Position numbers and translations under genes: made by a program. From an uncultured delta proteobacterium (lineage in GTDB: Bacteria > Desulfobacterota > Syntrophobacteria > BM002), in NCBI GenBank assembly GCA_963712115.1, contig CAVQGX010000005.1, positions 1 through 22,736 on the forward strand: a stretch of DNA of 22,736 nt, given 5' to 3'. Shown piece by piece: positions 2,203 through 22,736 of this stretch; position 1 is the stretch's first letter, and the number at the start of each line of letters is the position of its first letter. The notes under the pieces are model-generated. The model ran no database searches. It saw nothing but the letters and a program-made list of their open reading frames with translations, and was not told the DNA's origin.

Positions 2203-2309
2203 TGTGAATTACATACTTTAATCCACACTTTTCCCCCGAAGAACCCACTACCACAATTTGTGCTAGATTCACTGGGAGCAAAAGTGTAAATTAAGGGATG
2301 TAATTCACA
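2203..2309. repeat. Complete tripartite B-M-A site (B 2203-2227, M 2249-2262, A 2285-2309)
   Basis: TGTGAATTACATACTTTAATCCACACTTTT ... AAAAGTGTAAATTAAGGGATGTAATTCACA is an imperfect 30-bp inverted repeat around TACCACAATTTGTG. Confidence 0.92.
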
Positions 2310-3331: not shown

Positions 3332-3386
3332 GTACAGAGCTCTATTTAATCGTTAATGTGGGAAGTCCGCACAGCTTTTTCCAAAC

Positions 3387-3441
3387 TTTACATATCATAC
3401 TCCACACTTGCCCTTTTGAGAACTGACCACAACATCTGTGG
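3387..3441 (+). repeat. B-M half-site with 5-bp deletion in B (TTTACATAT CATAC-----TCCACA; M 3428-3441)
   Basis: Aligns to B consensus with TTTAA missing. M (CACAACATCTGTGG) begins 22 bp after the B end. Confidence 0.78.
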
Positions 3442-4924: not shown

Positions 4925-5263
4925 ATGAGCACTGACAACCGCCGCCACTTTAGAGCTAGAGTCAAATGGCCTGTTTTAATCCAGACTCCCACCGACCTCG
5001 TTGATGGAAAAACTGAAAACCTCAGTCTAAGCGGTGCATTCATCCGCCTATCGAAGCAATTGAACTCCAGTGCCGAAATACCTTTAGTCCTAAATGCCAA
5101 GGGACGGTTCATACCATGTAACGCTCAAATCGTCTGGTCTGACGAGCGCAACCTTTCAGACCAGAGAAAATTCCTTGGAATCGGAGTGCGCTTCACTCGT
5201 ATGATGCTCCACGACCGAGAGTTTCTTTATCGTGAAATTTCAAATGACGCTAGGGTTAAATAA
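4925..5263 (+). CDS. PilZ domain protein 4
   Basis: RRHFR and NLSLSG motifs, GIGVRF strand. Confidence 0.88.
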   Translation: MSTDNRRHFRARVKWPVLIQTPTDLVDGKTENLSLSGAFIRLSKQLNSSAEIPLVLNAKGRFIPCNAQIVWSDERNLSDQRKFLGIGVRFTRMMLHDREFLYREISNDARVK

Positions 5264-6055: not shown

Positions 6056-6427
6056 TTGTGGGAAAAAGATATATTAGAGTTGTCTAATCTTTTGCAATAT
6101 ATAATAGACCAATATATATATGAAATCAGTCTATATAATCAATGGAAACAAAGAGCAGACTCAATTTATGAAGAGAAATTGCACAAGATATTAGAGAACT
6201 TATTAATAGCACTGAATTTAATTTCTCAAATAATTACGTTCGAAATAGCATTACAAAATCTAAGTCTCGAAGATAGACAGATTTACGCATCATTTTTTCA
6301 TACAGCTAAAGAAATTATTGCCAGAACAGACTTGGATAAAATACGCAAAGGTCAGATAATTCACAACCTAGCTGCTCAATTATATTTCAATTCTGAACAA
6401 TTGCAGAATTTAAACAAACATCGCTAG
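6056..6427 (+). CDS. Hypothetical protein with C-terminal RKGQIIH motif
   Basis: C-terminus RTDLDKIRKGQIIHNLA matches 6525-6923 and the GGDEF protein tail. TTG start uncertain. Confidence 0.6.
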   Translation: MWEKDILELSNLLQYIIDQYIYEISLYNQWKQRADSIYEEKLHKILENLLIALNLISQIITFEIALQNLSLEDRQIYASFFHTAKEIIARTDLDKIRKGQIIHNLAAQLYFNSEQLQNLNKHR

Positions 6428-6524: not shown

Positions 6525-6923
6525 ATGGAGTTAGATAGCAGTTCTATGAAGTTGAAGGTAAAGCCGACATCCTATCCTGTAATGGAAATTTCTCTAAAAA
6601 ACAGGAGTGAACATGAGGATGACCTTTTGGAAACAGAAGTTACATTCTCGAGGGAGTTTTGGCTGAGTCTAGCGGACACGCTCAGGGAAGGAGCCAAGAG
6701 CATAGATGCTTTTGGTTCGCAAAGGGTAATATCGGGATTAAATCATATGGCCCAGAGAATATCGGAAGAAATTGAAGCAGAAAATCGCAGACTTCAATTT
6801 AAGGAAGCCTATGGGTCTTTTACGAATTTTGTCGTTCAAATCAGTAGCAGAAAGGATTTAGATGATGTGCGTAAAGGTCAAATTATTCACGATATGGCTC
6901 GCAAGTTGAAACTGGAGGATTGA
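6525..6923 (+). CDS. Hypothetical protein, stand-alone homolog of the GGDEF protein C-terminal domain
   Basis: AAGGAG RBS. Aligns over about 125 aa with the last domain of 8382-10022 (SYP, TEVxFxRxFW, QRIxxEIEAE, RKGQ..HD). Confidence 0.85.
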   Translation: MELDSSSMKLKVKPTSYPVMEISLKNRSEHEDDLLETEVTFSREFWLSLADTLREGAKSIDAFGSQRVISGLNHMAQRISEEIEAENRRLQFKEAYGSFTNFVVQISSRKDLDDVRKGQIIHDMARKLKLED

Positions 6924-7027: not shown

Positions 7028-7064
7028 TGTTATTTTCAGCACACTTAACCGAAAGCGAACATTA

Positions 7065-8100
7065 CCCTAATGTTGCATAAAAATCTGGTTTACGTCGATT
7101 TTGCTTCTAAGCTGCCTTTTGCACTGCCTCCAAGAAGTGCAGAAGATCTTTGCGAACTGCTGGGTTTGCGCTCATGGTGAGTGTCAGTTGGCCCTGGGGT
7201 CGTATGAGCCGTCCGGCGCGTTGAATGAAGCGGTGTCTGAGGGTATCTAGAGTTTGGAACTTCCAAGCTGCGGGGCGTTTCGGGCGAGCTCGCAGCAAGG
7301 GTGGATTTGCCAGCATTTGTATTTCTCGGGCTAAGTTGTGAGCCATCATCGCGCAAAGGGTATAGACCTGGTTGCCTGCCAAGCGCCGAGTGGGAATGAC
7401 ATTGAGGCCACAGTTGTTTTTGGCCTCGCCGAAGATGGCTTCTTGGGAGCTGCGGCCATTATGAAACAGCACGACGCTTTTGGCTGAGTTGGTTTTGTTG
7501 GTAACGATAACCTTATATTGGTAGTTGAAGTCACGTGGTTCAAACAGATCAAGTTGCAAAGGGCCTTTATATTGGCTTTTAACTCTTCTGCGAGTGAAAA
7601 TGAACCGATATTTCGTCTGCCACGATTTTGGCTTCCACCTGGCCTCAAAGTATGACCACTGCCTATCAACGATCCGCCAGCGTTGTCGCACCTCAATCAT
7701 TTGTTTGAGCTCTGCAAATCTTTCGAAGGGGACAGAGCCTGTAAACTGCACCTTGTTGGTATCAAAGACATCAAATATCTCCTTGTTGAAGAAAGCTGCA
7801 TCGATTCGCGATTCAAATCTGGTATTCGCTAGCTCGCTTCGTGCTTTTTCAAAACAGCGCATCATGAAATCAACGGCACCATTGGAGTCATGGACATTGC
7901 CAGGGCGGTGATGCACGTCAAAGAATTGGCCTGTTTGCGCGACGCTGCAAAACAGTGGATAGTAACTGCGTGCACCCTTTTTCCTTTTGTTGAAACCGAC
8001 AGCCGTGCCCTCTGCATGCGCTTTGGTGCTGAGCACGGAGCCATCAAAATCCAAGGTCAGGTTTATTTGTGAAAAACCCGATTTTTATGCAACATTAGGG
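7065..8100 (-). mobile_element. IS1380-family element, internally deleted, inserted in a B site
   Basis: 21-bp perfect terminal IR CCCTAATGTTGCATAAAAATC, with ATTA on both flanks (7061-7064, 8101-8104). Only 1036 bp long. Confidence 0.9.
7107..8054 (-). pseudogene. IS1380-family DDE transposase, 5'-truncated
   Basis: Begins at LTLDFDGS (first catalytic Asp region) about 40 bp from the IR. Also has RIDAAF and [15 protein letters not shown] motifs. The N-terminal part is absent. Confidence 0.85.
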
Positions 8101-8193
8101 ATTACTTTAATCTAAACTCTGGCTACTTCAGAGCACGTCCCACATTTTGTGTTAGCCTTTCAGGGGGCAAGGTATGTCATACTTTAGATCAGA
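8101..8193 (+). repeat. Remainder of IS-split B site (to 8116), M box (8138-8151) and a second B-like core (8169-8193) where A is expected
   Basis: ATTACTTTAATCTAAA, then TCCCACATTTTGTG 22 bp later, then GGGGGCAAGGTATGT-CATACTT-TAGATCAGA. Confidence 0.7.
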
Positions 8194-8381: not shown

Positions 8382-10022
8382 TTAAGATTTCAATTGTAAT
8401 CGACAAGCTATATCGTGAACCATCTGACCTTTTCGCGCCTTATCCAAAGCCGCTCTATTAACAATTTGGGCGACGGAATCAGCAAGAATCTCATACTCTT
8501 CTTTGTTTCGTAATCGTTTTTTCTCCGCTTCGATTTCAGCCATAATCCTTTGAGAAATCAAGGTCAGTGCCGCTCTCAGTGTTCCCGAACCATAGGAATC
8601 CATGTTATCAGTCATCTGTCTACAAACATTTGACAAATTGACCCAAAACTTTCTCGGGAATGAAACCTCTGTTTTCAGCTCATCGTGTTTGTCACCACGC
8701 TTTTCTATAATATGTAGTCTGATCTTCGGATACGAAGCAGCTTCAACGTGCAACACCACAGATTTGTTGCTTCCTTGCTCAATGCTACTCTCTTTCCTAT
8801 TTCGAACGAATAGATCAGTTCTCCGAATAATACTAATACCTTGGATCTGTTTTGAAACCGGAGGATTTATGAGTTCTTGATCTTCCTCAGAAACCCTCGT
8901 AAAGCGCGCGCCATGAGACACAACTTCGCTGTCATTGCATTGGACGTCTGACTTTTTTTCCTTCATGTTGAACATTTCTTGGTCTGCAAATGCGAGCAGT
9001 TCGGTCTGGTCAGTGGCGTCGTAGGGAAAAGTAGCGACTCCGAAACTCGCCCGAATACTGACTTTATATCCCTGGTCGGCAAGATAGACCGCTTGTCTCA
9101 TTTGTGATCGAATGGTTTCAACCACTTGTAAGGCCTGACTCTTGCTGAAACCGGGCAATACTACGATAAACTCATCCCCGGCATAAGCTACACCGTAAGC
9201 AGGTTCTGAAAGAACACTTCTGATGGTAGCGCCTACTTCCTGAATGGCCTGGCTGGCATTAAGATGGCCGTAAGTGTCCACCACGTGCTTAAAGTTATCA
9301 AGGTCCAAGAAGATTAGTGAAAACGTTTGGGTATTGGCAACACTATCCTCAATCAGTTCATCCAAGGCCTTATAGAGGTAGCGGGTGTTGTAAAGGCCGG
9401 TTAGATCGTCGTGGATGGCAAGGTTGCGGAATTTCTCCTCACTTTTCCTCAGCGCCTCCTCTACACGTTTTCGGGCATCATCGGCTTCCATCTTCTTGGA
9501 AACAATTGTCAGGCAGCCTAAGGAAAGGCTGATTCGATCTTCCTCAAAAGACTCTACAGTCGCCTGATCTTTGAACCAAAAAACTTCGCCACTTTGAGTA
9601 GAACTCTTGTAAACAGCCTCAACGATTCCTTTATCCTGAACCTCTTTGCGCAGCTTGCTTCTGGACCCTTTCAATTCCCGATGACTGAGAACTTCTTCCT
9701 TAACACTCCAATCCGTTTCAAGAGATTTGTATATGCGTCGTTCGAGGATGCTGTTACGAAAAGTCTCAGCGGCTTGCGAATATTCAGACCCCAAAATTCT
9801 GACAAAGCGTCTACTGACAAATTCATACCAGATGACTTTCTCTTCTTCGTGCCAGGCAGCAATATAAGGGATTGCCAATGTACCGAGATTATCAAATGCC
9901 CGAAAGATCAAAATACATTCCGCAACCCTTCTTTTTAACCTTTGACTGTATGGTCCGTGAAGAATTTGGCCGTAATAATCCCTTTCACAGAGCAAGATAA
10001 GCGTATTATTATCTGTCTTCAT
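8382..10022 (-). CDS. Diguanylate cyclase-like (GGDEF-domain) protein with AGDEF motif, PAS-like N-terminus and unrecognised C-terminal domain
   Basis: DDLTGLYN, DLDNFKHVVDTYGH, YAGDEF, ASFGVA and ADQEMF motifs. Confidence 0.9.
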   Translation of the reverse strand: MKTDNNTLILLCERDYYGQILHGPYSQRLKRRVAECILIFRAFDNLGTLAIPYIAAWHEEEKVIWYEFVSRRFVRILGSEYSQAAETFRNSILERRIYKSLETDWSVKEEVLSHRELKGSRSKLRKEVQDKGIVEAVYKSSTQSGEVFWFKDQATVESFEEDRISLSLGCLTIVSKKMEADDARKRVEEALRKSEEKFRNLAIHDDLTGLYNTRYLYKALDELIEDSVANTQTFSLIFLDLDNFKHVVDTYGHLNASQAIQEVGATIRSVLSEPAYGVAYAGDEFIVVLPGFSKSQALQVVETIRSQMRQAVYLADQGYKVSIRASFGVATFPYDATDQTELLAFADQEMFNMKEKKSDVQCNDSEVVSHGARFTRVSEEDQELINPPVSKQIQGISIIRRTDLFVRNRKESSIEQGSNKSVVLHVEAASYPKIRLHIIEKRGDKHDELKTEVSFPRKFWVNLSNVCRQMTDNMDSYGSGTLRAALTLISQRIMAEIEAEKKRLRNKEEYEILADSVAQIVNRAALDKARKGQMVHDIACRLQLKS

Positions 10023-11909: not shown

Positions 11910-12201
11910 GCATCTTCCTCCTCCTGGTGACTATAGCACTCTCTTGAGCGTCCAACTAACACCTTTTAGGGGCTGAAACTGTCTAGATCGGATTGAAACA
12001 TTATACTGCATTGATAGAATCTTTTTATATCCTGATAGAGAGAAATCAATTAATAAAAGATACGAAAATATCTTGGATGTGGCTGCGGATTTGTTAGCTG
12101 GCGAGTGGAAATGAAAGCAGGGAGTCTCCGGCGCTATATTGCAGAGAAGTGAAACTTAATCATTAGTAGCTTAGGTCCGCCCCGCAATTCATAGAAATAC
12201 A

Positions 12202-12309
12202 TATCATAATCATACTTTTCTGCACATTTCTGCCTCTTGAGGACCAGCTACCACGTTCTGTGTTGAGGTTTCAGGTGTGGAAAGTGTGACTTAAGGGATG
12301 GAATCTCCA
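12202..12309. repeat. Complete tripartite B-M-A site (B 12202-12226, M 12249-12262, A 12285-12309)
   Basis: TATCATAAT CATACTT TTCTGCACA ... TACCACGTTCTGTG ... TGTGACTTA AGGGATG GAATCTCCA. Same geometry as 2203-2309. Confidence 0.9.
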
Positions 12310-12445
12310 GTTTGCTCCCTTCCGTTTTGAGGCAACCGATTCATCTAAAAAATGCTGGTTTTTCGGTTCACTCGTGATAAAATACAAGCGGGTTACAGAG
12401 TAGGAGATTCAGTTACTCTGCATCATCCTACTCCCTCAGACATTG

Positions 12446-12488
12446 CCCCCACTGGCCAACGGTGCCCCGGCCAGTGGGGGATTTTTTT
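12446..12488 (+). terminator. Rho-independent terminator-like hairpin
   Basis: CCCCCACTGGCC / GGCCAGTGGGGG 12-bp stem followed by ATTTTTTT. Confidence 0.7.
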
Positions 12489-12503
12489 GGCATTGAGTTT
12501 GCA
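12488..12503 (+). promoter_or_regulatory. Putative sigma54 promoter
   Basis: TGGCATTGAGTTTGCA, GG-N10-GC. Confidence 0.7.
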
Positions 12504-12623
12504 TTAGTGAATCCGTGGGGTGAGCAAATTGCTCCCTCCTTGGTCCAGTCTCCTTCCTACTACAACCCTTGACTATCCCCATTGGTCCTATCTGGTGCCG
12601 TAGGCTGATGGGGATAACTTTTT

Positions 12624-13181
12624 TTGAACCGCTTTGACTTGACGGAGCTGGCTTTCCGAGTAAGGTCAATTCTCCGGACACGCTACATAGCCGATGAACT
12701 GGAGAGAGCAATAGCTTATATTGGGGAACTGGAGAAGGATTCCACGGCTTTAACAAAAGTAGATTTACGAGAAACTGCAATCAGTGAGAGATCTATGGAT
12801 GCCTTTATTGAGTGGGAGACATGTAAGAGAGGTACATGGTGTAATCTTTCAGAACTAGATTTAGGCCATGAGCATTTCGATGACATGGAAGGCGTGTACT
12901 TTATATGGCAAGGCGAAGAGAATCCAGTAGCCCTGCGAGTTAGCCACGGCTTAATCAGGGAATGCTTGGCCAGAGAGCAAAATGATAAAGACGTACTGGG
13001 CAACCTAAAGGATGAAATCTATGTGACTTGGGGGAAAGTCGATCGAAAATTCTGTGGTGGTATTGTCAGATATATTGAAAACATACTCCAACCAGCACTA
13101 GAAAGTTCCTCCCCAGATGTCGAATCAATCGAGGCAAACATACCCTCACCCTGGTACGAAGAAAGTTTCCCTTGGGAATAA
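12624..13181 (+). CDS. Hypothetical protein, C-terminal half possibly a degenerate GIY-YIG-like fold
   Basis: 185-aa ORF with GVYFIW and IYVTW motifs. The second Y(I/V)G motif is not conserved. TTG start uncertain. Confidence 0.6.
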   Translation: MNRFDLTELAFRVRSILRTRYIADELERAIAYIGELEKDSTALTKVDLRETAISERSMDAFIEWETCKRGTWCNLSELDLGHEHFDDMEGVYFIWQGEENPVALRVSHGLIRECLAREQNDKDVLGNLKDEIYVTWGKVDRKFCGGIVRYIENILQPALESSSPDVESIEANIPSPWYEESFPWE

Positions 13182-13216
13182 TATGCTCACTAATGTTGGT
13201 TTTTCAAAAAACACTA

Positions 13217-13239
13217 CGGGATTCGTCCCGCTTTTTTTT
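13217..13239 (+). terminator. Terminator hairpin (variant of GCGGAG family)
   Basis: CGGGA-TTCG-TCCCG followed by C and T8. Confidence 0.7.
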
Positions 13240-13261
13240 GTTCAGTGCATTCTGCCTAGAG

Positions 13262-13317
13262 TGAGCATTACATACATCTAAACTTTGTCTCTGAAGAAGC
13301 TACTACCATATGTTGTA
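13262..13317 (+). repeat. B-M half-site with 4-bp deletion in B (TGAGCATTA CATAC----ATCTAAA; M 13304-13317)
   Basis: The linker and M, CTTTGTCTCTGAAGAAGCTACTACCATATGTTGTA, align with CTTTTCCCCCGAAGAACCCACTACCACAATTTGTG at 2228. Confidence 0.8.
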
Positions 13318-13559
13318 CTATTTATTTAAAACCCGATCCCAACGGTCGGAATATAAATTGCAGTTTCCCAGTGAATAAGTTGGAGTAAACTTTTCTCATC
13401 ATTAAATGTACTTTTCTAACCTCTAGGTTTTAGATATTCTTGTTTATCTTTAAACCCACCAAAGTTTACATGTTGGCGAGAGATATATCATTACCCATTA
13501 TTAGTAACCATCCCCTCATGATGATCGAACTAATAAAAAGAATCTCCCAATAATTAGCT

Positions 13560-13575
13560 TGGCACATGCGTTGCA
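13560..13575 (+). promoter_or_regulatory. Putative sigma54 promoter
   Basis: TGGCACATGCGTTGCA, near-consensus -24/-12. Confidence 0.78.
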
Positions 13576-13744
13576 TCCTTCCCTCTGTGTAAGCAAAAAG
13601 CCTTCCTTTCCATACAGGTTAAACATTTTCTTTTTTTCAAGAGAGGGTTGCTATCCTAGTGATAGCAGCCCTTTTGCTATGGAAGGGTTTGTTAGACATG
13701 CTTGAAAGCCAATACCTAATCTGTAGAGGTTTATATTCGGAGGT

Positions 13745-14182
13745 ATGATATTGCATACAGTGAATGGTATCGAGCAACGTCAGCATCCTAGGGCCGAAAT
13801 CAGCTGGTCTGTAACTTTGAGACCATCTTGGGGGACAATAAAGGGAGAAACGCTAAATGTTAGCTCTATGGGTGCTTTTATCAAGAGTTCTGAGCCGCTG
13901 AAGTTTAATGAAGTTTTCATACTGGATATGGATGTTCTCGCACTAGATTATCCATTAAAGGCCATCGCTGAAGTGGTATGGTTGAACAGCAAAGGAAATA
14001 AAAATGAAATTACACCATATGGGATGGGGATTCGCTTCATAAGAATCTCAAGTGCGGACCGAAGATTCATTTTTAATGAGGTACTAAAGCATCTCAACTC
14101 AGAGAGTGTGGAAACCGGCTCTTCTGTGGTTTTTCAGACTACAGCTGTCGATCAAGAAGTCGAATCCGGTGAAGCTATTTGA
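13745..14182 (+). CDS. PilZ domain protein 5
   Basis: RQHPR, NVSSMG, AEVVW and GMGIRF motifs. Confidence 0.9.
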   Translation: MILHTVNGIEQRQHPRAEISWSVTLRPSWGTIKGETLNVSSMGAFIKSSEPLKFNEVFILDMDVLALDYPLKAIAEVVWLNSKGNKNEITPYGMGIRFIRISSADRRFIFNEVLKHLNSESVETGSSVVFQTTAVDQEVESGEAI

Positions 14183-14307
14183 GTGTGAATGGGTTAATCC
14201 TTGGAGATTTTGGGATGATTTCTGCGCATCATAGCCATTATTAAATCTTTCCTGGGTGAGTGCAAACTCACGAGATGATGAACTTTTATTGTAAGGAGGT
14301 TACTGCC

Positions 14308-14721
14308 ATGAGAAAGTTACTTTTCCTTCTCCCATTCCTGGTACTGGTCGCTATGTGCTTAGGCTTGCAAGCCACGAGCCAGGCCCAAGATAACTCTCAT
14401 CTGGAAGTCGCTGCATCTGCAATCTGCAAGGATGTAGTTGATCTGGAACCTGTGGACAGCGGCACTAGTTTCGTCGCTGAGGAAGGCGGACTCTATTGTT
14501 TTACTAAGATTACCGGTGCCCAGAGTCCTTCTCATGTGACACACGTATGGTATTTCGACGGCACCGAGAGAGCCAGGGTAGACCTGGCTGTCAATTCCAT
14601 CGCATGGCGCACCTATAGCTCGAAGATTATACAGCCACATGAGCTAGGGGCGTGGCATGTAGATGTTCTCGATTCACTGGGCAACGTGCTGAAGACTCTA
14701 AAGTTCGAGGTCGCGCCATAA
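14308..14721 (+). CDS. Secreted DUF2914-family protein
   Basis: AAGGAGG RBS and signal peptide. LYCFT, VTHVWY, WRTYSSK and GAWHVDV motifs. Confidence 0.8.
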   Translation: MRKLLFLLPFLVLVAMCLGLQATSQAQDNSHLEVAASAICKDVVDLEPVDSGTSFVAEEGGLYCFTKITGAQSPSHVTHVWYFDGTERARVDLAVNSIAWRTYSSKIIQPHELGAWHVDVLDSLGNVLKTLKFEVAP

Positions 14722-14801
14722 GATAAAATTTTCTTTTGAATAAGATCCAAGCGGTCCTCGCTATGATTCAAGGGTTGAAGGACTATGCTGTCAAACCGAG
14801 A

Positions 14802-14833
14802 AAAAGGCAGGGTCAGCAATGGCTCTGCCTTTT
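14802..14833 (+). terminator. Bidirectional terminator, related in sequence to 22668-22700
   Basis: AAAAGGCAGGGTC-AGCAAT-GGCTCTGCCTTTT. Confidence 0.75.
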
Positions 14834-14975
14834 GCTATTCATTAGTCAAAGAAAATAGCGGAGCTTAGACTCCGCCATTTTATTCAGCGCAACAATCCCC
14901 GCTCCCGAAAGAGCCTATTGAGTTTCCTTCCCAACCGTATTGGTGCATGGCTAATCCTCTGGCATATTTCCTGCA
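14834..14975 (+). repeat. Second copy of the 140-bp hairpin plus sigma54 promoter module
   Basis: Aligns to 3449-3588. GCGGAG hairpin at 14858-14875 and TGGCATATTTCCTGCA at 14960-14975. Confidence 0.9.
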
Positions 14976-15098
14976 GTTTTTTCCTCTTCGAAGGAGAGAG
15001 ACTGATCCCCTCTCTTCTTCTAAAAATACCTCCATCTAGCACCGCTCCCACACCGAGATTTCCGGTGTGGGGGCAAACACCCTAGGGAAAGAAACGAA

Positions 15099-15485
15099 AT
15101 GCCGCAAAAAGATAGACGCAAACATCAAAGAGCAAAAGTAGTGTGGCCTGTAATCATGGAAAACAACCGAAATATCATAAGCGGTGAAACGCAAGATATA
15201 AGTGCTGGTGGAGCATATATACGTTGTCGTACACCACTGAAGCCCGTTGAGGTTTCCATGTATGTCAGTGTCTCTTTTTTAAGCCCTCGTATAAGAGCCA
15301 TGGCAGAAGTTGTCAGGTCAGATGTTCTTGGATCAGCTAATGGGGTTGACTACTATGGTATAGCAGTTAGGTTCGTAGCAATTTCTAATGAAGCCCGGGA
15401 ACTCATCTCACTTGAATTTCAGGACACAAAATTGTCACCTCCTACAACAACGTCGGTATCCCCAACTCATCAGCCACACCCTTAA
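15099..15485 (+). CDS. PilZ domain protein 6
   Basis: RKHQR, DISAGG and GIAVRF motifs. Confidence 0.9.
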   Translation: MPQKDRRKHQRAKVVWPVIMENNRNIISGETQDISAGGAYIRCRTPLKPVEVSMYVSVSFLSPRIRAMAEVVRSDVLGSANGVDYYGIAVRFVAISNEARELISLEFQDTKLSPPTTTSVSPTHQPHP

Positions 15486-15541
15486 CGTCAATGGTCATCA
15501 GGGCAATACTATCTCCTTCTATTCCCCCTGCCTTGACAACT

Positions 15542-15601
15542 CTCAATATCTTGTGCCAGATTAGAATCCAGGCGAGTGTGAATTAAGGGATGTAATCTTT
15601 G
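15542..15601 (+). repeat. M-A half-site (M 15542-15555, A 15577-15601)
   Basis: CTCAATATCTTGTG then TGTGAATTA AGGGATG TAATCTTTG. Confidence 0.88.
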
Positions 15602-15751
15602 CTTTCACGCTAGACGGTCTCGTCCAGTTTGATCTGAATTGGTATTTTTTTTCCACTTCTATGGTCTTCTCTTCCCAATCACTAAATCAAACTTTTCATA
15701 CACCATGCCATAAGTTATTGAATTTCAGTCTAATTAATTAGACTCCTAATG

Positions 15752-15767
15752 TGGCACAATCTTTGTT
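15752..15767 (+). promoter_or_regulatory. Possible sigma54 promoter (imperfect -12)
   Basis: TGGCACAATCTTTGTT, with GT instead of GC at -12. Confidence 0.4.
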
Positions 15768-15906
15768 TATCTAGACTACATGTTGAATACCCATTAATTC
15801 TGCTGCCAGACTCCAACACTGCATGTTTGGGTCATCTTTTGGAGGATCTTTCATGCATACAGTTTTCCTTAACTCAGCGGCTCTAATGAAAAGCGGGGCA
15901 GTTTAG

Positions 15907-16140
15907 ATGACAACCTCGGAGAAAAGGATACTTGAAGCGAATCTATTTCAATTCGTCATCCGCCTTCGCTCCTGGCTCAGAAACCAGATTAACAGGATTA
16001 AAGCAATTTCAGTGGCTTTATTGGCGCTAATCCTGATTGTACTCGTAAGGTTACTTTGTCTATTTGTGGGCAGAACTGAAGCGCCAGAAATAGATTTACG
16101 AGAAGTTGAGGCAGAGTCAGACGAGAAAGTAATTTTTTAG
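15907..16140 (+). CDS. Small hypothetical membrane protein
   Basis: 77 aa with one hydrophobic segment (AISVALLALILIVLVRLLCLFV). Confidence 0.5.
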   Translation: MTTSEKRILEANLFQFVIRLRSWLRNQINRIKAISVALLALILIVLVRLLCLFVGRTEAPEIDLREVEAESDEKVIF

Positions 16141-16168
16141 TCGTGGATGAAATCCTTTCGAGGTCTCA

Positions 16169-16600
16169 ATGTTTCCGGAGTTATACTTATCCGTAGGGTA
16201 TGTTTTTCTGGTAAGTCTGCTTCTACTAAGGGATGAATATCTAACCAGGAAGATTAAGAAGAAACGCCTTGACGTCCGAGCCAAACTCTCTTGGCCAGTC
16301 ACGGTCCAAACTATCGCAGGACCCATTTGCGGTCACACGGAAAACATTAGCGTATCTGGTGCTTTATTGGTCTGTCTACAGCCATTATGCAAGGGTGAAA
16401 TACTAAAAGTAGTCTTAAATGTTCCAAGTCGGCCCTTGGAGGTAGACGCAGAGGTAGTTTGGACCGACATGTATCGACCCTCTGAAAAAAACTATCCTCA
16501 CAATGCAATCGCCGTCCAGTTCAAACGGATTTCAGATGAGTCCAGAAGTTTTTTGGCCCTAGCAGTGCATAATCGCTTGAACACTGATAAGCGTTCGTAG
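16169..16600 (+). CDS. PilZ domain protein 7 with N-terminal hydrophobic anchor
   Basis: RLDVR, NISVSG, AEVVW and AIAVQF motifs. GAGG RBS and hydrophobic residues 5-20. Confidence 0.88.
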   Translation: MFPELYLSVGYVFLVSLLLLRDEYLTRKIKKKRLDVRAKLSWPVTVQTIAGPICGHTENISVSGALLVCLQPLCKGEILKVVLNVPSRPLEVDAEVVWTDMYRPSEKNYPHNAIAVQFKRISDESRSFLALAVHNRLNTDKRS

Positions 16601-16619
16601 GCTCAAATACTGGAGAGAT

Positions 16620-16644
16620 AGCGGAGCTTCGGCTCCGCTTGTTT
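16620..16644 (+). terminator. GCGGAG-family hairpin with UUCG loop
   Basis: AGCGGAGC-TTCG-GCTCCGCT followed by TGTTT. Confidence 0.75.
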
Positions 16645-16726
16645 ATACGCTAAATAGCTTGTCCCAACCTGACTTCTAGCAGAAGCACAGATAAAAGCCT
16701 AACAAGGAACACTTACCATCCATAGC

Positions 16727-18016
16727 ATGAGGCACACGATGAGTTCATACAACAAGAAAAAGATGATCCTATCCATCCTTATAATCCTGATGTTGTGGTC
16801 CATAGCTTTGCTCCTAGGATTAGGATATCGAGACGTCTCTGCTTTTTTCCAAGGACAGGCGGAGGCCTCTGTGAGTCGTGTGGGGCATTTGAACGAAAAG
16901 AAACTTTGGCCTCCCTTGCAACGCCTCTTGGGAGCCCAAGTGCTTACTCTCAAATGTAAAAACTATGATGAGGTGGAACAGAGCATTGTAGATCTCAGGG
17001 AGGCAGGCGTTAATACTTTAATTGTTCGTGCATTTCAAAACCGCGGCGACACATTTCATCATTTTGCTAGTCCGCGATGTCAGGCAGGGGTCTATTTTGA
17101 AACCGAACACGGGGAGGTCGTGGACCCGATGTTAACACGACTTGTCTCTATTGCGCACCGACATGATCTTAAAGTGTTTGCTTGGATGGAGACACGGAAG
17201 ATGCCCCTTAGGTTGACTAATCCTGAAAGGGCCCAAGCAGTGCGTTATGATTTCGCCCAAAAAACCTTTGAACTAATACCTATGTGGAGCATCTTTGCCG
17301 AGGAGGTCCAGAGGAGCCTTATGGCACTCTACCAGGATGTGGCGAGAACAGGAATCGATGGAATCTTGGTTCAGGATGATTTAGTCATGTACCAGTATGA
17401 AGACTTCTATCCAGAAGCAGTATCACTGTTTGAGAGGGAAACAGGCAAGGTGCTCAGCCCGAAGACGCTCTACCTTTCGATTTTCAAAAGTCCTAAAGGA
17501 CGCTGGTTCGTACGCAATTACTCATACAACTTCTGGAGATGGTCACGCTGGAAAAATCAAAAACTTCTAGACTTAGCACGCAACCTCATCAGAGCTACCA
17601 GGGAAGTCAATCCAAACATAAAGTTCGCCCTCAACTTCATGTACGAGTCGGTAACCGACCAGGACAACGCCCTGGCATGGTTGTCTCAGGATCTTGAGGC
17701 GGCCATGAGACTCCCAATCGACTTCTATGCCATAATGGCCTACCACAGACAAATCAAAAAGGAGCTACATCTGAGCGATGAGGAAACCTATGAAAAAATC
17801 GCCAGCATGACAGCAAGACTCCTGCGGGTGATTGATGATCCCAGTAAGATCTTAATGAAAATACAGGTAAAGGATTGGGATACTCGCAAACAGATACCCT
17901 CCATTGAAATAGATGAGGTCCTTAGGAGGATAGATAGTCAAAATCAAATCAGCCTCGCTTTCGTACCCTACTCCGGCAGACATTCTCTTGAAGTGATCAG
18001 CCGCTATTTTCGATGA
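16727..18016 (+). CDS. PgaB C-terminal-like (GH153/GHL13-type) glycoside hydrolase, membrane anchored
   Basis: GVYF, KVFAWM, LYQDVA, IDGILVQDD, AWLSQD and AIMAY parallel the PgaB/HmsF C-terminal barrel. N-terminal TM helix; start uncertain. Confidence 0.75.
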   Translation: MRHTMSSYNKKKMILSILIILMLWSIALLLGLGYRDVSAFFQGQAEASVSRVGHLNEKKLWPPLQRLLGAQVLTLKCKNYDEVEQSIVDLREAGVNTLIVRAFQNRGDTFHHFASPRCQAGVYFETEHGEVVDPMLTRLVSIAHRHDLKVFAWMETRKMPLRLTNPERAQAVRYDFAQKTFELIPMWSIFAEEVQRSLMALYQDVARTGIDGILVQDDLVMYQYEDFYPEAVSLFERETGKVLSPKTLYLSIFKSPKGRWFVRNYSYNFWRWSRWKNQKLLDLARNLIRATREVNPNIKFALNFMYESVTDQDNALAWLSQDLEAAMRLPIDFYAIMAYHRQIKKELHLSDEETYEKIASMTARLLRVIDDPSKILMKIQVKDWDTRKQIPSIEIDEVLRRIDSQNQISLAFVPYSGRHSLEVISRYFR

Positions 18017-18043
18017 ATACCAAAGTTGTCCATCGTACTGCAG

Positions 18044-18200
18044 ATTGCATATATCCCCACTTTTGCCATTTAAGACCAAGCTACAATATCTTGGTTTAAT
18101 CTAAGAAAATGCGGAGTTTTTGGCTCCGCTTTTTTCTTCTCAACATCTTGTGCCTGAGCTTTCTGATGGGGAAACTGTGAATTAAGGGATGGTATCTACA
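18044..18200 (+). repeat. Split site: deleted B (18044-18059), M (18082-18095), GCGGAG hairpin (18111-18135), M (18139-18152), A (18176-18200)
   Basis: ATTGCATAT---------ATCCCCA CTTTTG, TACAATATCTTGGT, CTCAACATCTTGTG and TGTGAATTA AGGGATG GTATCTACA, with conserved spacings. Confidence 0.85.
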
Positions 18201-18454
18201 GGTTTGCTCCCTCCTTTTTGACCCAGCCAATTAATCGAAAATGGTGGTTTTTCGTGTTGACACATCTCTGCTTCTTATTTCACCCTTATGTGATTGTTCC
18301 CCATCACCTTAGCTTTTCTTCTCCTCGGACCTGCAATCACCTAAGATGCTATAAGTAATTAATAAATTACTTTAGCTTTGTTTTGTTAATATATATATTT
18401 TAGGCACTTAAATTACCATAGATGGCCATATAGTTACCTACACAACTGCTAAGA

Positions 18455-18470
18455 TGGTCTAATCTTTGCA
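18455..18470 (+). promoter_or_regulatory. Putative sigma54 promoter
   Basis: TGGTCTAATCTTTGCA, GG-N10-GC, 45 bp before the ATG at 18516. Confidence 0.5.
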
Positions 18471-18515
18471 TGTACTTTTGTGGCAATATGGCTAACTATA
18501 CGGTACCAATGCACC

Positions 18516-19049
18516 ATGAATCAGAAAAGAAAAAGCTACAACACCACTCTCAGGGCTGACCTAACCAGACGGCTCCGCATCCTCGCAGCCCAGAGGAGCA
18601 AGCGGCACAATGATCTTCTGGAAGAGGCTATACAAGACCTTTTAACCAAATATGAAAAATATGAAAAAGACTCCCAAGTACCGACTCTTAGTCCAGTCCC
18701 TAAAGCAGAAAGGCGCGAGCATCCTAGAGCTGAAGTATCATGGCCTGTAAGTATGATTACCGCTCAAGGCTTATTTCAAGGAGAAATCAAAGATATCAGC
18801 AAAGGTGGTGCACTCATCCAATGTACAGAACTGCCCAAAACAGATGAGCCCCTTGAATTAAGCATTGAGATAACCGACCACCTTTTAAGCATATCAGCCA
18901 CCGTGGAAAAGGTTAGGCTAAATCTTGATGATAGTGACAAAGCCCTTCCTTCATATGATATGGCTGTCCGCTTTCTGGGAATTGAGGCTGACCAAAGTAA
19001 ACATCTGTTCAATGCTATTGAACACAAAACCCGAACAATTGCCATTTAA
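18516..19049 (+). CDS. Ribbon-helix-helix - PilZ fusion protein (PilZ 8)
   Basis: N-terminal RKSYNTTLRADLTRRLRILAA...NDLLEEAIQDLL has RHH pattern. C-terminal REHPR, DISKGG and MAVRF motifs. Confidence 0.85.
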   Translation: MNQKRKSYNTTLRADLTRRLRILAAQRSKRHNDLLEEAIQDLLTKYEKYEKDSQVPTLSPVPKAERREHPRAEVSWPVSMITAQGLFQGEIKDISKGGALIQCTELPKTDEPLELSIEITDHLLSISATVEKVRLNLDDSDKALPSYDMAVRFLGIEADQSKHLFNAIEHKTRTIAI

Positions 19050-19077
19050 GATCTATAGAGTATCATTCAAAGAACAC

Positions 19078-19153
19078 AGCGGAGTCCTTGGCTCCGCTTT
19101 TTTCTTCTCAACATTTTGTGCCAGTGTCAAGACCAGCCAAAGTTTAAATTAAG
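19078..19153 (+). repeat. GCGGAG hairpin, M box (19107-19120) and left part of A site (19143-19153) split by ISL3
   Basis: GCGGAG..GGCTCCGCTTTTTTCTTCTCAACATTTTGTGCC is nearly identical to 18111-18154. Confidence 0.88.
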
Positions 19154-20500
19154 GGTTCTTCTCCCAATTAGTTGTATATATAGGTAAAAGTGGGCTGGTT
19201 CATCAAAACAGAATGGACATCCGGTAACTCCTAGAAGTATATGGTTTAACGACCAAGACAAACCCTATACAAAGGAGGCCTGCGATGTCCTTGCCCACTA
19301 TAGCAGCTTATTTTCCTTTTCGTCGAATCAAAATTGTCAATCAGGCGGTTACACCCGAGGCTAGCGAAGCTCACATCCAGGTACAGCCGGACAAGCGCTT
19401 TCAGCCCATCTGCCATGGATGCGGCCAGAGGGCTTGCGGTGTTCACAGCTGGAGTCGGCGCAAAGTTCGGGATCTGCACCTTGCCAGTGCTCGGCTGTGG
19501 CTCACCTGTCAATATCGCAAGGTGTTTTGTGCTCACTGTCAAGGCATCCATATCGAGGATTTAGAGCTGTTTCACCCTTATCTTCGGATGACAAATCGAT
19601 TGGCCCTTTATGTTTATCAGCTGTGCCAGTTTATGACCGTATCCGAGGTGGCTCGACACCTGGGTCTGAATTGGAAAACGGTTAAAGCCATCGACAAGTT
19701 TTGTTTGGAACGCGATTATGGTCAACTCGACTACCAGGGCCTGCACATTTTAGCTGTGGACGAAATCTCCATCCGAAAAGGTCAGCGCTACTTGACCATT
19801 GTATTGGACTATCTCAGTGGCCGCGTGGTCTTTGTCGGCAAAGAGCGCAAGGCCAAAACTCTGGAGAGGTTTTTCAATAAGTTGAATGGCAAGCAGCGTA
19901 AAGCCATTGAGGCAATTGTCATGGATATGTGGGACCCGTATATCAAAGCCGTTAAAAAAAACTGCCTCAGGCTAAGATCGTCTTCGATCTGTTCCACGTC
20001 GTGGCCAATCTTAACCTGATTATAGATAAGGTCAGAAACAGCGAATATCGCAAGGCCTCCGAACAGGACAAGGCTGTCTACAAAGGTGCAAGGTACCTGC
20101 TGCTCAAAAACCGCAAAAACGTGCGACGCAGAACTCATCGACAACAACTCAAAGAGCTGCTGGAGTTAAACCAAGTAATCAATACGGTGATGATTCTTAA
20201 GGAAAAGCTCAAACACATATGGACCTATCGATCAAAGACATGGGCTAGCAAGGCTATCGATCACTGGTGCGAACTGGCCCGGTCCTTAAATCACCCATCG
20301 GTGACAGGCTTTGCCCGGATGTTAGAACGATATCGATACGGCATCCTCAATCACTGTGATTATCCTATCCACACCGGAAAGCTGGAAGGGGTGAATAACA
20401 AAATCAAAGTCATCAAACGTAAAGCCTACGGATATCATGACTTGCGATACTTTACGCTGAAAATCTATCAAGCTTTCTTCAACTAATTGGGAGAAGAACC
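19154..20500 (+). mobile_element. ISL3-family insertion sequence inserted in an A site
   Basis: 21-bp terminal IR GGTTCTTCTCCCAATTAGTTG and 8-bp TSD AAATTAAG (19146-19153, 20501-20508). Confidence 0.93.
19285..20486 (+). CDS. ISL3-family transposase, split by a -1 frameshift at A8 (19954-19961)
   Basis: CHGC/CAHC zinc finger, AVDE, MDMW and EGVNNKIK motifs. The -1 frame restores LPQAKIVFDLFH. Confidence 0.9.
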
Positions 20501-20522
20501 AAATTAAGGGATGTAATACAAA
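20501..20522 (+). repeat. Right part of IS-split A site (AAATTA AGGGATG TAATACAAA)
   Basis: Rejoining across ISL3 gives TTTAAATTA AGGGATG TAATACAAA. Confidence 0.88.
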
Positions 20523-21554: not shown

Positions 21555-22645
21555 ATGATATACAAAAAAATATGCAAGTTGCTTTTTGTAATCATTCTGC
21601 TCCTCTTTCCAACGGCTGCCTTTGCTGAAAACATCGACCCGAACAATGACAACTCACAGTTCGCTTATGGGGAGAATGTGGGATGGTGTAGCTTAGAACC
21701 TGGAGGTAATGGTGGTCTTGGACTAGAGGTGGCTAGTTCTGGAGTGACTGGCTACATGTATTGCGAGAACATAGGGTGGGTCAACTTCCGCCCCACCAGT
21801 GGCAGTGGAGTTAATATTGACCCAAACAATGGTGAGTTAAGCGGTTTTGCGTGGAGTGAGAACGGTGGGTGGGTCAACTTCCGCCCCACTACTGGCGGTG
21901 GAGTTAATATTGACCCAAACAATGGTGAGTTCAGTGGCTTTGCATGGGCTGAGAACTTCGGATGGATTAATTTTGCTCCGACTAGTGGCGGAGTAACGAC
22001 TTCATGGACTCCATCTGTAGACACTGGCGGCGATGGCATAGAGGACGATTCTGACAACTGCCCAGCCGTGGCGAACCCAGTGCAAGAGGATTATGAAGAC
22101 GACGGTGTGGGCGATTTCTGTGACAATTGCCCTGGCATGTCAAATCCGACCCAAATCAATGCGGACAAAGATAGCTTTGGCGATGCCTGTGACAACTGTC
22201 CGACTGTGGCCAACGATGACTAGGCCAATAACGATACTGACAAGGCTGGCGATGTTTGCGATGAAGACGACGACAACGACACCGTCCTTGATGCAGACGA
22301 TAACTGCCCGTTCGTGGCAATTCAGATCAGGTTGACTCTGACGGTGATGGCATAGGAAACGCCTGTGATGATGATACTTATGGTGACGGTATTTCAGACT
22401 TGGACGATCGGTGTCCAGAAACTGCAATAGGAACGGTTGTAAACGCTAATGGGTGCAGTGGCGAACAGCTCGTAGATTTAGATTGCCCGTGTGAGATTGA
22501 ACCAGCCTGGAAAAATCACGGCCAGTATGTATCCTGTGTTGCTCATGCCGCAGAAGACCAGTTAACGGCTGGGCTGATCACTCAGGCAGAAAAAGATGCC
22601 ATCGTGTCAGCACGTGCCAAAAGCGGTTGTGGCAAAAAGAAGTAA
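21555..22645 (+). pseudogene. Secreted protein with GxAWxENxGWxNF repeats and thrombospondin type 3 Ca-binding repeats, disrupted
   Basis: Signal peptide and DNCP..N..Q.D.D.DG.GD.CD repeats. In-frame TAG at 22221 and a 1-bp frameshift near 22319, after which the repeats continue to the stop at 22645. Confidence 0.85.
21774..21956 (+). repeat. Intragenic 93-bp tandem duplication
   Basis: GGGTGGGTCAACTTCCGCCCCAC..GGAGTTAATATTGACCCAAACAATGGTGAGTT at 21774 and 21867. Confidence 0.9.
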
Positions 22646-22711: not shown

Positions 22712-22736
22712 TGGATATATCATACTTTAATTCACA
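22712..22736 (+). repeat. B-type 25-bp site (TGGATATAT CATACTT TAATTCACA)
   Basis: Its reverse complement TGTGAATTAAAGTATGATATA matches the window start TGTGAATTAAGGGATGATATA at 19/21. Confidence 0.92.

Follow-up and report, generated by a model that had tools for sequence, protein, structure and literature searches.

A recurrent B–M–A repeat in an uncultured delta proteobacterium: a putative recombination site with two core types, related to a unit encoding a small Xer-like recombinase

The res site of Tn3 and gamma-delta comprises three dimer-sized subsites at fixed spacing within about 110 bp, a layout that recurs in the repeat described here, and the attC sites of integrons are characterized by the consensus boxes RYYYAAC and GTTRRRY, which are absent from this repeat. 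The pdif sites are 28 bp long, with 11-bp arms. In a description of the Acinetobacter dif modules (PMC13141974), a pdif site consists of an XerC binding site, a 6-bp spacer and an XerD binding site, and inversely oriented core sites alternate two types of module, the sites that react with each other being those with like spacers; PMC6449649, PMC10132070 and PMC12907356 also entered into our comparison with these modules. Insertion of ISPpu9 in REP sequences is reported in PMC12288879. Our searches of open-access text turned up dif modules in Acinetobacter alone, and nothing that describes the repeat studied here.

The stretch of DNA analyzed here (the window) is the whole of contig C5, 22,736 bases long, from the 4.9-Mb assembly G000 of an uncultured delta proteobacterium (70 contigs, 94.4% complete). 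A preliminary description of the window had proposed that three elements, B, M and A, recur in it with a fixed geometry. We found this geometry at all 12 places it named, the elements being separated by 22–23 bp: the seven B–M cases are present, with M (at 1741, 2249, 3428, 8138, 12249, 13304 and 18082) starting 22–23 nt beyond the CACA end of B, and so are the five M–A cases, with A (at 2285, 12285, 15577, 18176 and 19143) lying 22–24 nt past M. The announced length of 107–108 bp holds for the full sites, and the linkers do vary in sequence while keeping a constant length. A and B are inverted 9-7-9 core sites that differ in their spacer: A has AGGGATG, whereas B has CATACTT, which becomes AAGTATG in the orientation of A.

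All the sites of the window are on the forward strand. The full site under study spans 2203–2309 (B 2203–2227, linker 2228–2248, M 2249–2262, linker 2263–2284, A 2285–2309), and no direct repeat flanking it was seen on inspection; the second full site spans 12202–12309 (B 12202–12226, M 12249–12262, A 12285–12309). B–M halves are found at 1695–1754 (B 1695–1719, with spacer CATACTT, and M 1741–1754), at 3382–3441 (a short B variant devoid of TTAAT, 3382–3406, and M 3428–3441), at 8092–8151 (B 8092–8116 and M 8138–8151, 30 bp from an IS4-type insertion sequence (IS) located at 7062–8061) and at 13258–13317 (a degenerate B, 13258–13282, and M 13304–13317). An M–A half lies at 15541–15601 (M 15541–15554, A 15577–15601); when the PilZ module upstream of it is compared with its copies in relatives, homology stops at 15596, i.e. 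at position 19 of this A. A larger unit, B–M–terminator hairpin–M–A, occupies 18036–18200 (B 18036–18060, M 18082–18095, hairpin 18111–18129, M 18138–18151, A 18176–18200). Finally, a terminator hairpin (19078–19098), an M (19104–19117) and the left part of an A (19143–19154) make up the segment 19078–19154, where A is cut by an ISL3-family IS (19155–20500) with an 8-bp target duplication, AAATTAAG. The A at 19143 and the A-like sequence at 20498 are a single A site split by this IS, whose remainder at 20501–20522 consists of the duplicated AAATTAAG, the end of the spacer and the right arm. The same ISL3-in-A composite recurs on contig C11 (77420–78860) with 96% identity.

Besides this remainder, two sites add to those listed previously: an A core site with the AGGGATG spacer at the very start of the contig (1–25), where the assembly broke in the repeat, and a B core site at its very end (22712–22736). 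These motifs are not a product of chance, as shuffled sequences yield none: the A 16-mer (up to 2 mismatches) has six matches in the window versus 0.00 in 100 shuffles, and the B 20-mer (up to 3 mismatches) two versus 0.00. Rfam and tRNA scans of the window returned no match, and a promoter scan of 12000–20000 gave no signal (14 matches versus 14.1 expected). Terminator-like hairpins number 13 versus 7.4 ± 2.5, the GCGGAG...CTCCGC hairpins being among them. Several conserved sequence families directly follow A (window positions 12310–12350 and 18201–18261, and many A sites genome-wide); one of them ends with a TTGACA box about 70 nt downstream and may be a module-borne promoter leader.

Profile searches of the whole assembly retrieved 213 half-sites (127 A-side and 86 B-side) spread over 37 of the 70 contigs. 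They fall into 27 full sites, 13 B–M–terminator–M–A sites, 86 M–A-only sites, 45 B–M-only sites and one other, so that the claimed coexistence of full sites and halves (27 versus 131) is borne out genome-wide. The B–A spacing is quantized: 27 of the 43 B–A pairs lying less than 400 bp apart in G000 are separated by 76–82 bp, start to start, and 14 by 121–139 bp, 13 of the latter having a terminator hairpin between two M copies. At 97 loci, nearly all from other genomes, the spacing is 80–82 bp in 20 of 32 pairs and 137–139 bp in 9 of 32. The conservation of spacing thus extends to a larger set of copies, within G000 and beyond. The insert between the two M copies is a 57-bp terminator unit at the 13 sites of G000 and in the 9 pairs out of 32 at other loci; at C3:121086 it is 230 bp long. 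M is whole in 73 of 85 M–A-only sites and in 24 of 45 B–M-only sites.

The spacers are the most uniform part of the cores: AGGGATG is found in 94 of 110 A sites, and CATACTT and CATACTC in 53 and 11, respectively, of 78 B sites, with mean majority fractions of 0.97 and 0.95 over the two spacers. In the arms, this fraction is 0.90 (left) and 0.68 (right) for A, and 0.65 (left) and 0.70 (right) for B. The arm that faces M is thus the better conserved one, clearly so in A and by a small difference in B. Note that in a few rare sites (L017:76–181, L044:3696–3801 and the left end of L153) the spacer on the B side is that of A in reverse complement; the two spacers are then identical and inverted, and such units could invert.

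With up to one mismatch, the A 16-mer is present in each of the 17 other genomes available for the genus, as well as in the one genome of a sister genus. It is absent from the three genomes of further genera of the family and from 19 genomes that represent other families, and a reversed control pattern has no match. Exact 20-nt matches to A also occur on contigs binned to unrelated phyla (L083, a 300-kb contig filed under an archaeal MAG, and L043, L051, L055, L057 and L063), which could reflect mis-binning or horizontal spread. Within arrays, the sites are co-oriented: 159 of 162 consecutive half-sites no more than 6 kb apart are on one strand, and about 80% of the flanking open reading frames (ORFs) are oriented like the sites. 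Segments of the window fall on different contigs in relatives, and the reading of B–M–A as a marker of gene-module boundaries is supported. Of the half-sites of G000, which has 140 contig ends, nine are located no more than 120 bp from such an end, and both ends of the window contig fall in sites; the poor assembly of these genomes is explained by the repeats.

A candidate enzyme is encoded within split copies of the repeat in related genomes and metagenome contigs. The gene, which specifies an Xer-like tyrosine recombinase of 262–279 residues, is antisense to the site that it splits. In the orientation of the array, the unit begins with B, a hairpin and M, continues with the antisense gene and a promoter region of about 150 nt, and closes with a second M, 21–22 nt and A. 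The unit measures 1085–1088 bp in all eight complete copies. Both ends of the ordinary site are therefore common to a longer, enzyme-encoding unit in which B and M-22-A flank the gene at fixed distances, as in a miniature derivative. The gene is flanked by sites in genomes G005, G006, G011 and G018. At 18 independent metagenome loci with a full-length gene, A is found 176–185 nt before the ATG in 10 cases and B 66–73 nt past the stop codon in 12, both being inverted relative to the gene; at the thresholds used, a recognizable B is missing in 6 of the 18 copies and a recognizable A in 8. The window itself contains no gene of this family, and the sole copy in G000 (C3:1094–1927) is a variant with a B-like left end and without a canonical A.

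Homologues of the 279-residue recombinase encoded on C3 (E ≤ 1e-30) were found in 8 of 19 genomes from the two genera that bear sites, and in none of the three genomes of genera in which no site was detected. All the genomes compared are MAGs, and the 11 site-bearing ones without a homologue are all incomplete. The protein contains a Phage_integrase domain and is nearest to XerA/XerC-like chains. However, its score with the best curated model, XerA (NF040815), is 115–119 bits against a cut-off of 220, and no curated Xer model was passed; the best solved relative is 4a8e, an XerC-like protein (E = 4.7e-14). The 262–279-residue protein is thus Xer-like yet outside the named families. The recombinase family comprises 2,676 proteins at E ≤ 1e-10, and 7 of the 10 best homologues are on contigs shorter than 3 kb, which is what one would expect of a gene enclosed between repeats.

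To locate the junctions, we compared the flanks of all sites, in G000 alone and then in G000 together with about 100 loci, nearly all of them from other genomes. Among 72 pairs of A sites with a common flank, 68 share one flank only and 4 share both. When only the left flank is shared, homology ends at positions +16 to +28 of A in 23 of 27 pairs; when only the right flank is shared, 30 of 41 pairs gain homology at −6 to +5 and another 6 gain it near M. In both of these majorities (23 of 27 and 30 of 41), the break thus lies within positions 0–19 of A. B mirrors A, with left-only homology ending at 19–33 in 29 of 35 pairs and right-only homology starting at −4 to 9 in 19 of 25. M is the breakpoint in a minority of the right-only pairs (6 of 41 for A and about 6 of 25 for B). 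These positions place the junction within the invariant arm-plus-spacer of A and of B, with a resolution limited to the invariant 16–24 nt and for pairs of related copies that do not represent independent events.

The recombinase unit was examined in the same way. Over 109 pairs of unit copies, homology starts at B positions 2–23 in 62 of 68 cases and never at M; it ends at A positions 14–28 in 37 of 92 cases, beyond in one, and earlier in 54, the earlier ends lying in the diverged promoter side of the unit. As the copies have the B-side hairpin linker and the A-side linker in common, and their homology does not stop before the spacers of B and A, the unit was not inserted at the M of ordinary sites. 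A moved module is seen in a 2.2-kb stretch that extends from position 0 of A to position 24 of B (C3:121403–123633). It recurs at 98–99% identity in a second context on C3, where the copy is truncated by the end of the contig, and on C39, where the copy stops at the B site and is followed by unrelated DNA. No simple gain or loss of one module was found between two loci, the loci of the other genomes being short. In public sequencing runs, assembled contigs of 200–700 bp, which are too short to reveal excision circles, accumulate at the repeats and connect A with a variety of sequences downstream of it.

On balance, these comparisons lead us to favor the view that B–M–A is the recombinase-less, fused-ends form of the 1.09-kb recombinase unit, in a system of alternating modules delimited by A and B sites. 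The candidate recombinase would pair A with A and B with B, and the differing spacers would block A × B events; such a separation of A and B by consistently different spacers would explain the strict co-orientation of the sites. The chromosome would thereby be divided into alternating gene modules, bounded by the variable arms, and connector modules, bounded by the conserved, M-facing arms, and modules would be exchanged, lost or gained at A and B sites. A connector would consist of M alone (the 107-bp site), or would carry a terminator with an M on either side, cargo genes, or the gene for the recombinase. As to M, located 22 bp from each conserved arm, it would be an accessory or bending site rather than the main exchange point, a role suggested solely by its constant phasing and by its occurrence at either end of the recombinase unit. 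The core of the IHF consensus is CAA-N4-TTG, and only some M variants fit it. Halves (131 versus 40 full sites) are commoner than the model most simply predicts, and their excess is explained by it only via fused modules.

A more far-reaching version is plausible, albeit put forward tentatively: the repeat and its small Xer-like recombinase may form a self-contained module-shuffling system that works on double-stranded cores, i.e. a second, independent, integron-like platform for gene capture. Any gene block between A and B could then be swapped between sites or genomes, by way of the 107-bp copies devoid of the recombinase, hundreds of which are spread over the chromosomes of this genus of sediment Desulfobacterota; each of these copies combines a pair of inverted, heterospecific cores with a central motif at fixed phase. 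Such a system would coexist with a true integron and would have absorbed parts of it, in the form of attC 5' halves fused to B. Indeed, the 5' half of a classical attC runs straight into B at C31:156417, C13:18511, C27:118282, C42:183914 and C54:12932; a second IS110 subfamily is found at an attC end on C54.

It is rather unlikely that B–M–A is instead a passive or regulatory palindromic repeat of the REP/BIME kind, a mosaic lying downstream of genes and shuffled by homologous recombination, with the recombinase as cargo. The high copy number, the extragenic location, the dyad symmetry and the mosaic of B, M, A and T modules are all in keeping with this explanation, as are the stable fold of the single strand (−20.9 kcal/mol, z = −5.5) and the fact that IS110/IS1111-type IS land at the edge of an A arm in four copies out of four. 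Moreover, the breaks coincide with the longest identical stretches, and homologous recombination at identical stretches of 16–24 nt would leave an identical footprint. However, such stretches are short for RecA-type exchange, and both the fixed gene-to-end distances of the 1085–1088-bp unit and the near-uniform orientation of neighboring sites speak against a passive repeat, random spread of a near-palindrome not being predicted to produce the latter. Furthermore, no RAYT-type gene is linked to the repeat, and Y1 genes occur equally in G020, a genome without sites.

The preliminary description had placed the exchange in M, with the full site as an attP-like site, the B–M and M–A forms as attL- and attR-like halves, and A and B as accessory binding sites. 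Halves do exist, most of them with a whole M; the 57-bp terminator unit and the 230-bp insert are flanked by two M copies, as is the recombinase gene itself, and a few junctions are at M. Yet the observation that this description had itself named as decisive against exchange in M, namely junctions at the 7-bp spacers of A and B rather than at M, is what the comparison of copies revealed: most junctions are in A and B, and the unit copies lose homology only at the B and A spacers. In addition, one and the same downstream module is found after differing M-linker sequences, for instance at C3:121403, C3:127229 and C39:10268. Exchange in M is therefore very unlikely. The assignment of roles is better reversed: since breaks are far commoner at the A and B spacers than at M, A and B look like crossover cores, and M like a phased accessory element.

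Another reading, to which we likewise attach little probability, is that the host XerC and XerD act at A and B as chromosomal sites resembling those of dif modules, the small recombinase being dispensable. Both genes are present in G000, above the NCBIfam cut-offs. In addition, genomes G002 and G013 bear sites, and only two tyrosine recombinase genes were found in each of them, encoding proteins of 296–298 and 356–357 residues that score like the XerD and XerC of G000. The arms also resemble the arm of XerD type in a dif-like site of C43, with agreement at 5.9–6.9 of 11 positions versus 2.8 for random 11-mers, the comparison being post hoc. By contrast, the spacer is of 7 bp rather than 6, and the arms are of 9 bp and alike on both sides. 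As regards G002, it is an incomplete MAG, which is filed as a single contig and displays two 100-base breaks in its self-match within 20 kb. Dif-like sites with 6-bp spacers and a shared XerD-type arm are found in G000 at C43:75937–75963 and C49:23172–23199; GC skew confirms neither as the chromosomal dif, with no sign change at C43.

Several other enzymes were set aside. The likeness of B–M–A to gamma-delta res pointed out previously leaves a res-like reading without an enzyme, as no serine recombinase gene was found in G000 (no match to the Pfam resolvase family PF00239 in this 94.4% complete assembly). A zinc-ribbon integrase gene lies beside two arrays (on C39 and C11); it was rejected since it has homologues at E ≤ 1e-40 in only 2 of 19 site-bearing genomes and also in the site-less G020. 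IS110-family proteins (E ≤ 0.001) were rejected as the driver, being found in 9 of 19 site-bearing genomes, not in G002 or G013, and in the site-less G021; IS110-family elements are insertions into the sites and not the mover of the sites. Y1 genes fared no better: none of the four Y1 matches in G000 is beside a catalogued site, three of them being IS200-size open frames (150–155 residues), and the 320–350-residue Y1 frames of relatives also occur in G020, which has no sites. The integron integrase was likewise discarded as the enzyme because it has a classical attC array of its own.

The site may also be considered as a folded strand, an alternative raised in the preliminary description. Dyad symmetry is present and belongs to the family consensus, but compensatory covariation is absent. 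Over 24 full sites, the complementarity of the B side with the A side of the same site does not exceed that with the A sides of other sites (permutation p = 0.66 for the outer arms, 0.35 for the inner arms and 0.56 for the linkers), with scores in situ and with shuffled partners of 4.46 versus 4.55 for the outer arms and −3.33 versus −3.28 for the linkers. When 31 sites drawn from many genomes were folded together, the covariation term of the RNAalifold consensus was −0.04. In the full hairpin, the proportion of paired cells is 72.4% versus 71.5 ± 0.6 when partners are shuffled (a value reached by 45 of 500 shuffles), and the covariation score is 0.125 versus 0.118 (reached by 90 of 500). The conserved length of the linkers, combined with their free sequence, fits a protein–DNA architecture better than a folded strand, and the earlier notion of a multi-part, double-stranded site of the recombination type is supported. 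That B–M–A functions as a folded single strand like an integron attC, used by the IntI of this genome, is extremely improbable: although the dyad symmetry has a consistent imperfection at the spacer region, the arrays are co-oriented like cassettes and an IntI gene is present on C27 (TIGR02249, 487 bits for a cut-off of 265), this gene is followed by classical attC repeats of a different sequence (C27:1–3300), covariation is absent and halves without one hairpin arm are the commonest form. The identification of B–M–A itself with attC was rejected on the same ground, the IntI-adjacent array carrying other, classical attC sites.

The cargo of the window is accessory and comprises hydrolases, an AraC regulator, a GGDEF protein and PilZ proteins, along with three IS. 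No family near the sites is larger than that of the single-domain PilZ proteins, whose cluster has 45 ORFs in G000, mostly PilZ. In the window, PilZ-family ORFs are found at 1139–1594, 1768–2121, 4925–5263, 13745–14182 and 18480–19049, among others; five are confirmed by Pfam, and one PilZ forms a fusion with an antitoxin-like RHH domain. The window also encodes a conserved domain, about 70 residues long and ending in RKGQ(I/M)(I/V)H, in two stand-alone ORFs without a Pfam match (6056–6427 and 6525–6923) and at the C-terminus of a GGDEF fusion (8382–10022), with more copies on C31 and C50. The ORF at 21555–22223, with thrombospondin type 3 repeats, contains two tandem 93-bp copies at 21765–21950 that are 87% identical.

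Elsewhere in G000, the IS110/IS1111-type IS mentioned above, which is 1.31 kb long and has subterminal inverted repeats, occurs at the outer edge of the A arm on C36 (18.4–19.7 kb), C42 (16.9–18.4 kb; L136), C41 (2.0–4.2 kb) and C48 (12.5–13.8 kb), the C42 copy splitting a full B–M–A site. A 14-nt remnant of its right end replaces both M and the linker between M and A before an A in G005 (L018, 802–815), and replaces this linker in G013 (L125, before 2176).

If the recombinase acts on A and B, the system would be a natural cassette-exchange system, with an enzyme of about 270 residues and two short, orthogonal sites. This would bear on how uncultured bacteria of the sulfate-reducer type assemble large sets of signaling genes, and it could be a source of new tools for site-specific recombination; in its self-contained version, the system would resemble engineered recombinase-mediated cassette exchange.

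Set against known systems, B–M–A shares with REP/BIME repeats and MITEs an extragenic location, a palindromic and mosaic structure, a genus-wide distribution and targeting by the IS110 family and, with MITEs, a short form that has both ends in common with a longer, gene-carrying form. It differs from MITEs and from the REP/RAYT pair in that the linked gene encodes a tyrosine recombinase rather than a DDE or HUH transposase and no Y1/RAYT gene is linked, and from REP and MITE repeats in that no target-site duplication was seen and orientation is strictly kept in arrays. As in integrons, the arrays are long and co-oriented, with unrelated small genes between imperfect palindromes of about 60–140 bp, the junction is at the edge of the repeat and the recombinase gene is oriented divergently from the adjoining array in G005 and G006. 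Unlike the attC/IntI pair, the repeat displays no covariation, its recombinase has no IntI-type extra domain and half-sites are common. Unlike in res, the two outer subsites are the break points, so that the crossover is not confined to one end subsite.

The closest likeness that we see is to the Acinetobacter dif modules, as described in the papers cited above. In both cases, inverted sites bound two alternating module types, reactions take place, or would take place here, between identical or near-identical spacers, modules become fused after loss of a site, specific IS lie beside the sites and the cargo consists of accessory genes. The pdif sites, however, have a 6-bp spacer and distinct XerC and XerD arms, whereas the cores described here are of the 9-7-9 type with like arms. 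The setting also differs from that in Acinetobacter, the sites being chromosomal, numbering hundreds and belonging to uncultured Desulfobacterota. Finally, in contrast to the dif modules, one of the two module types is here nearly always a 57-bp connector with a central M at fixed phase, there are two types of site with fixed, different spacers, and the connector can carry a small Xer-like recombinase of its own.
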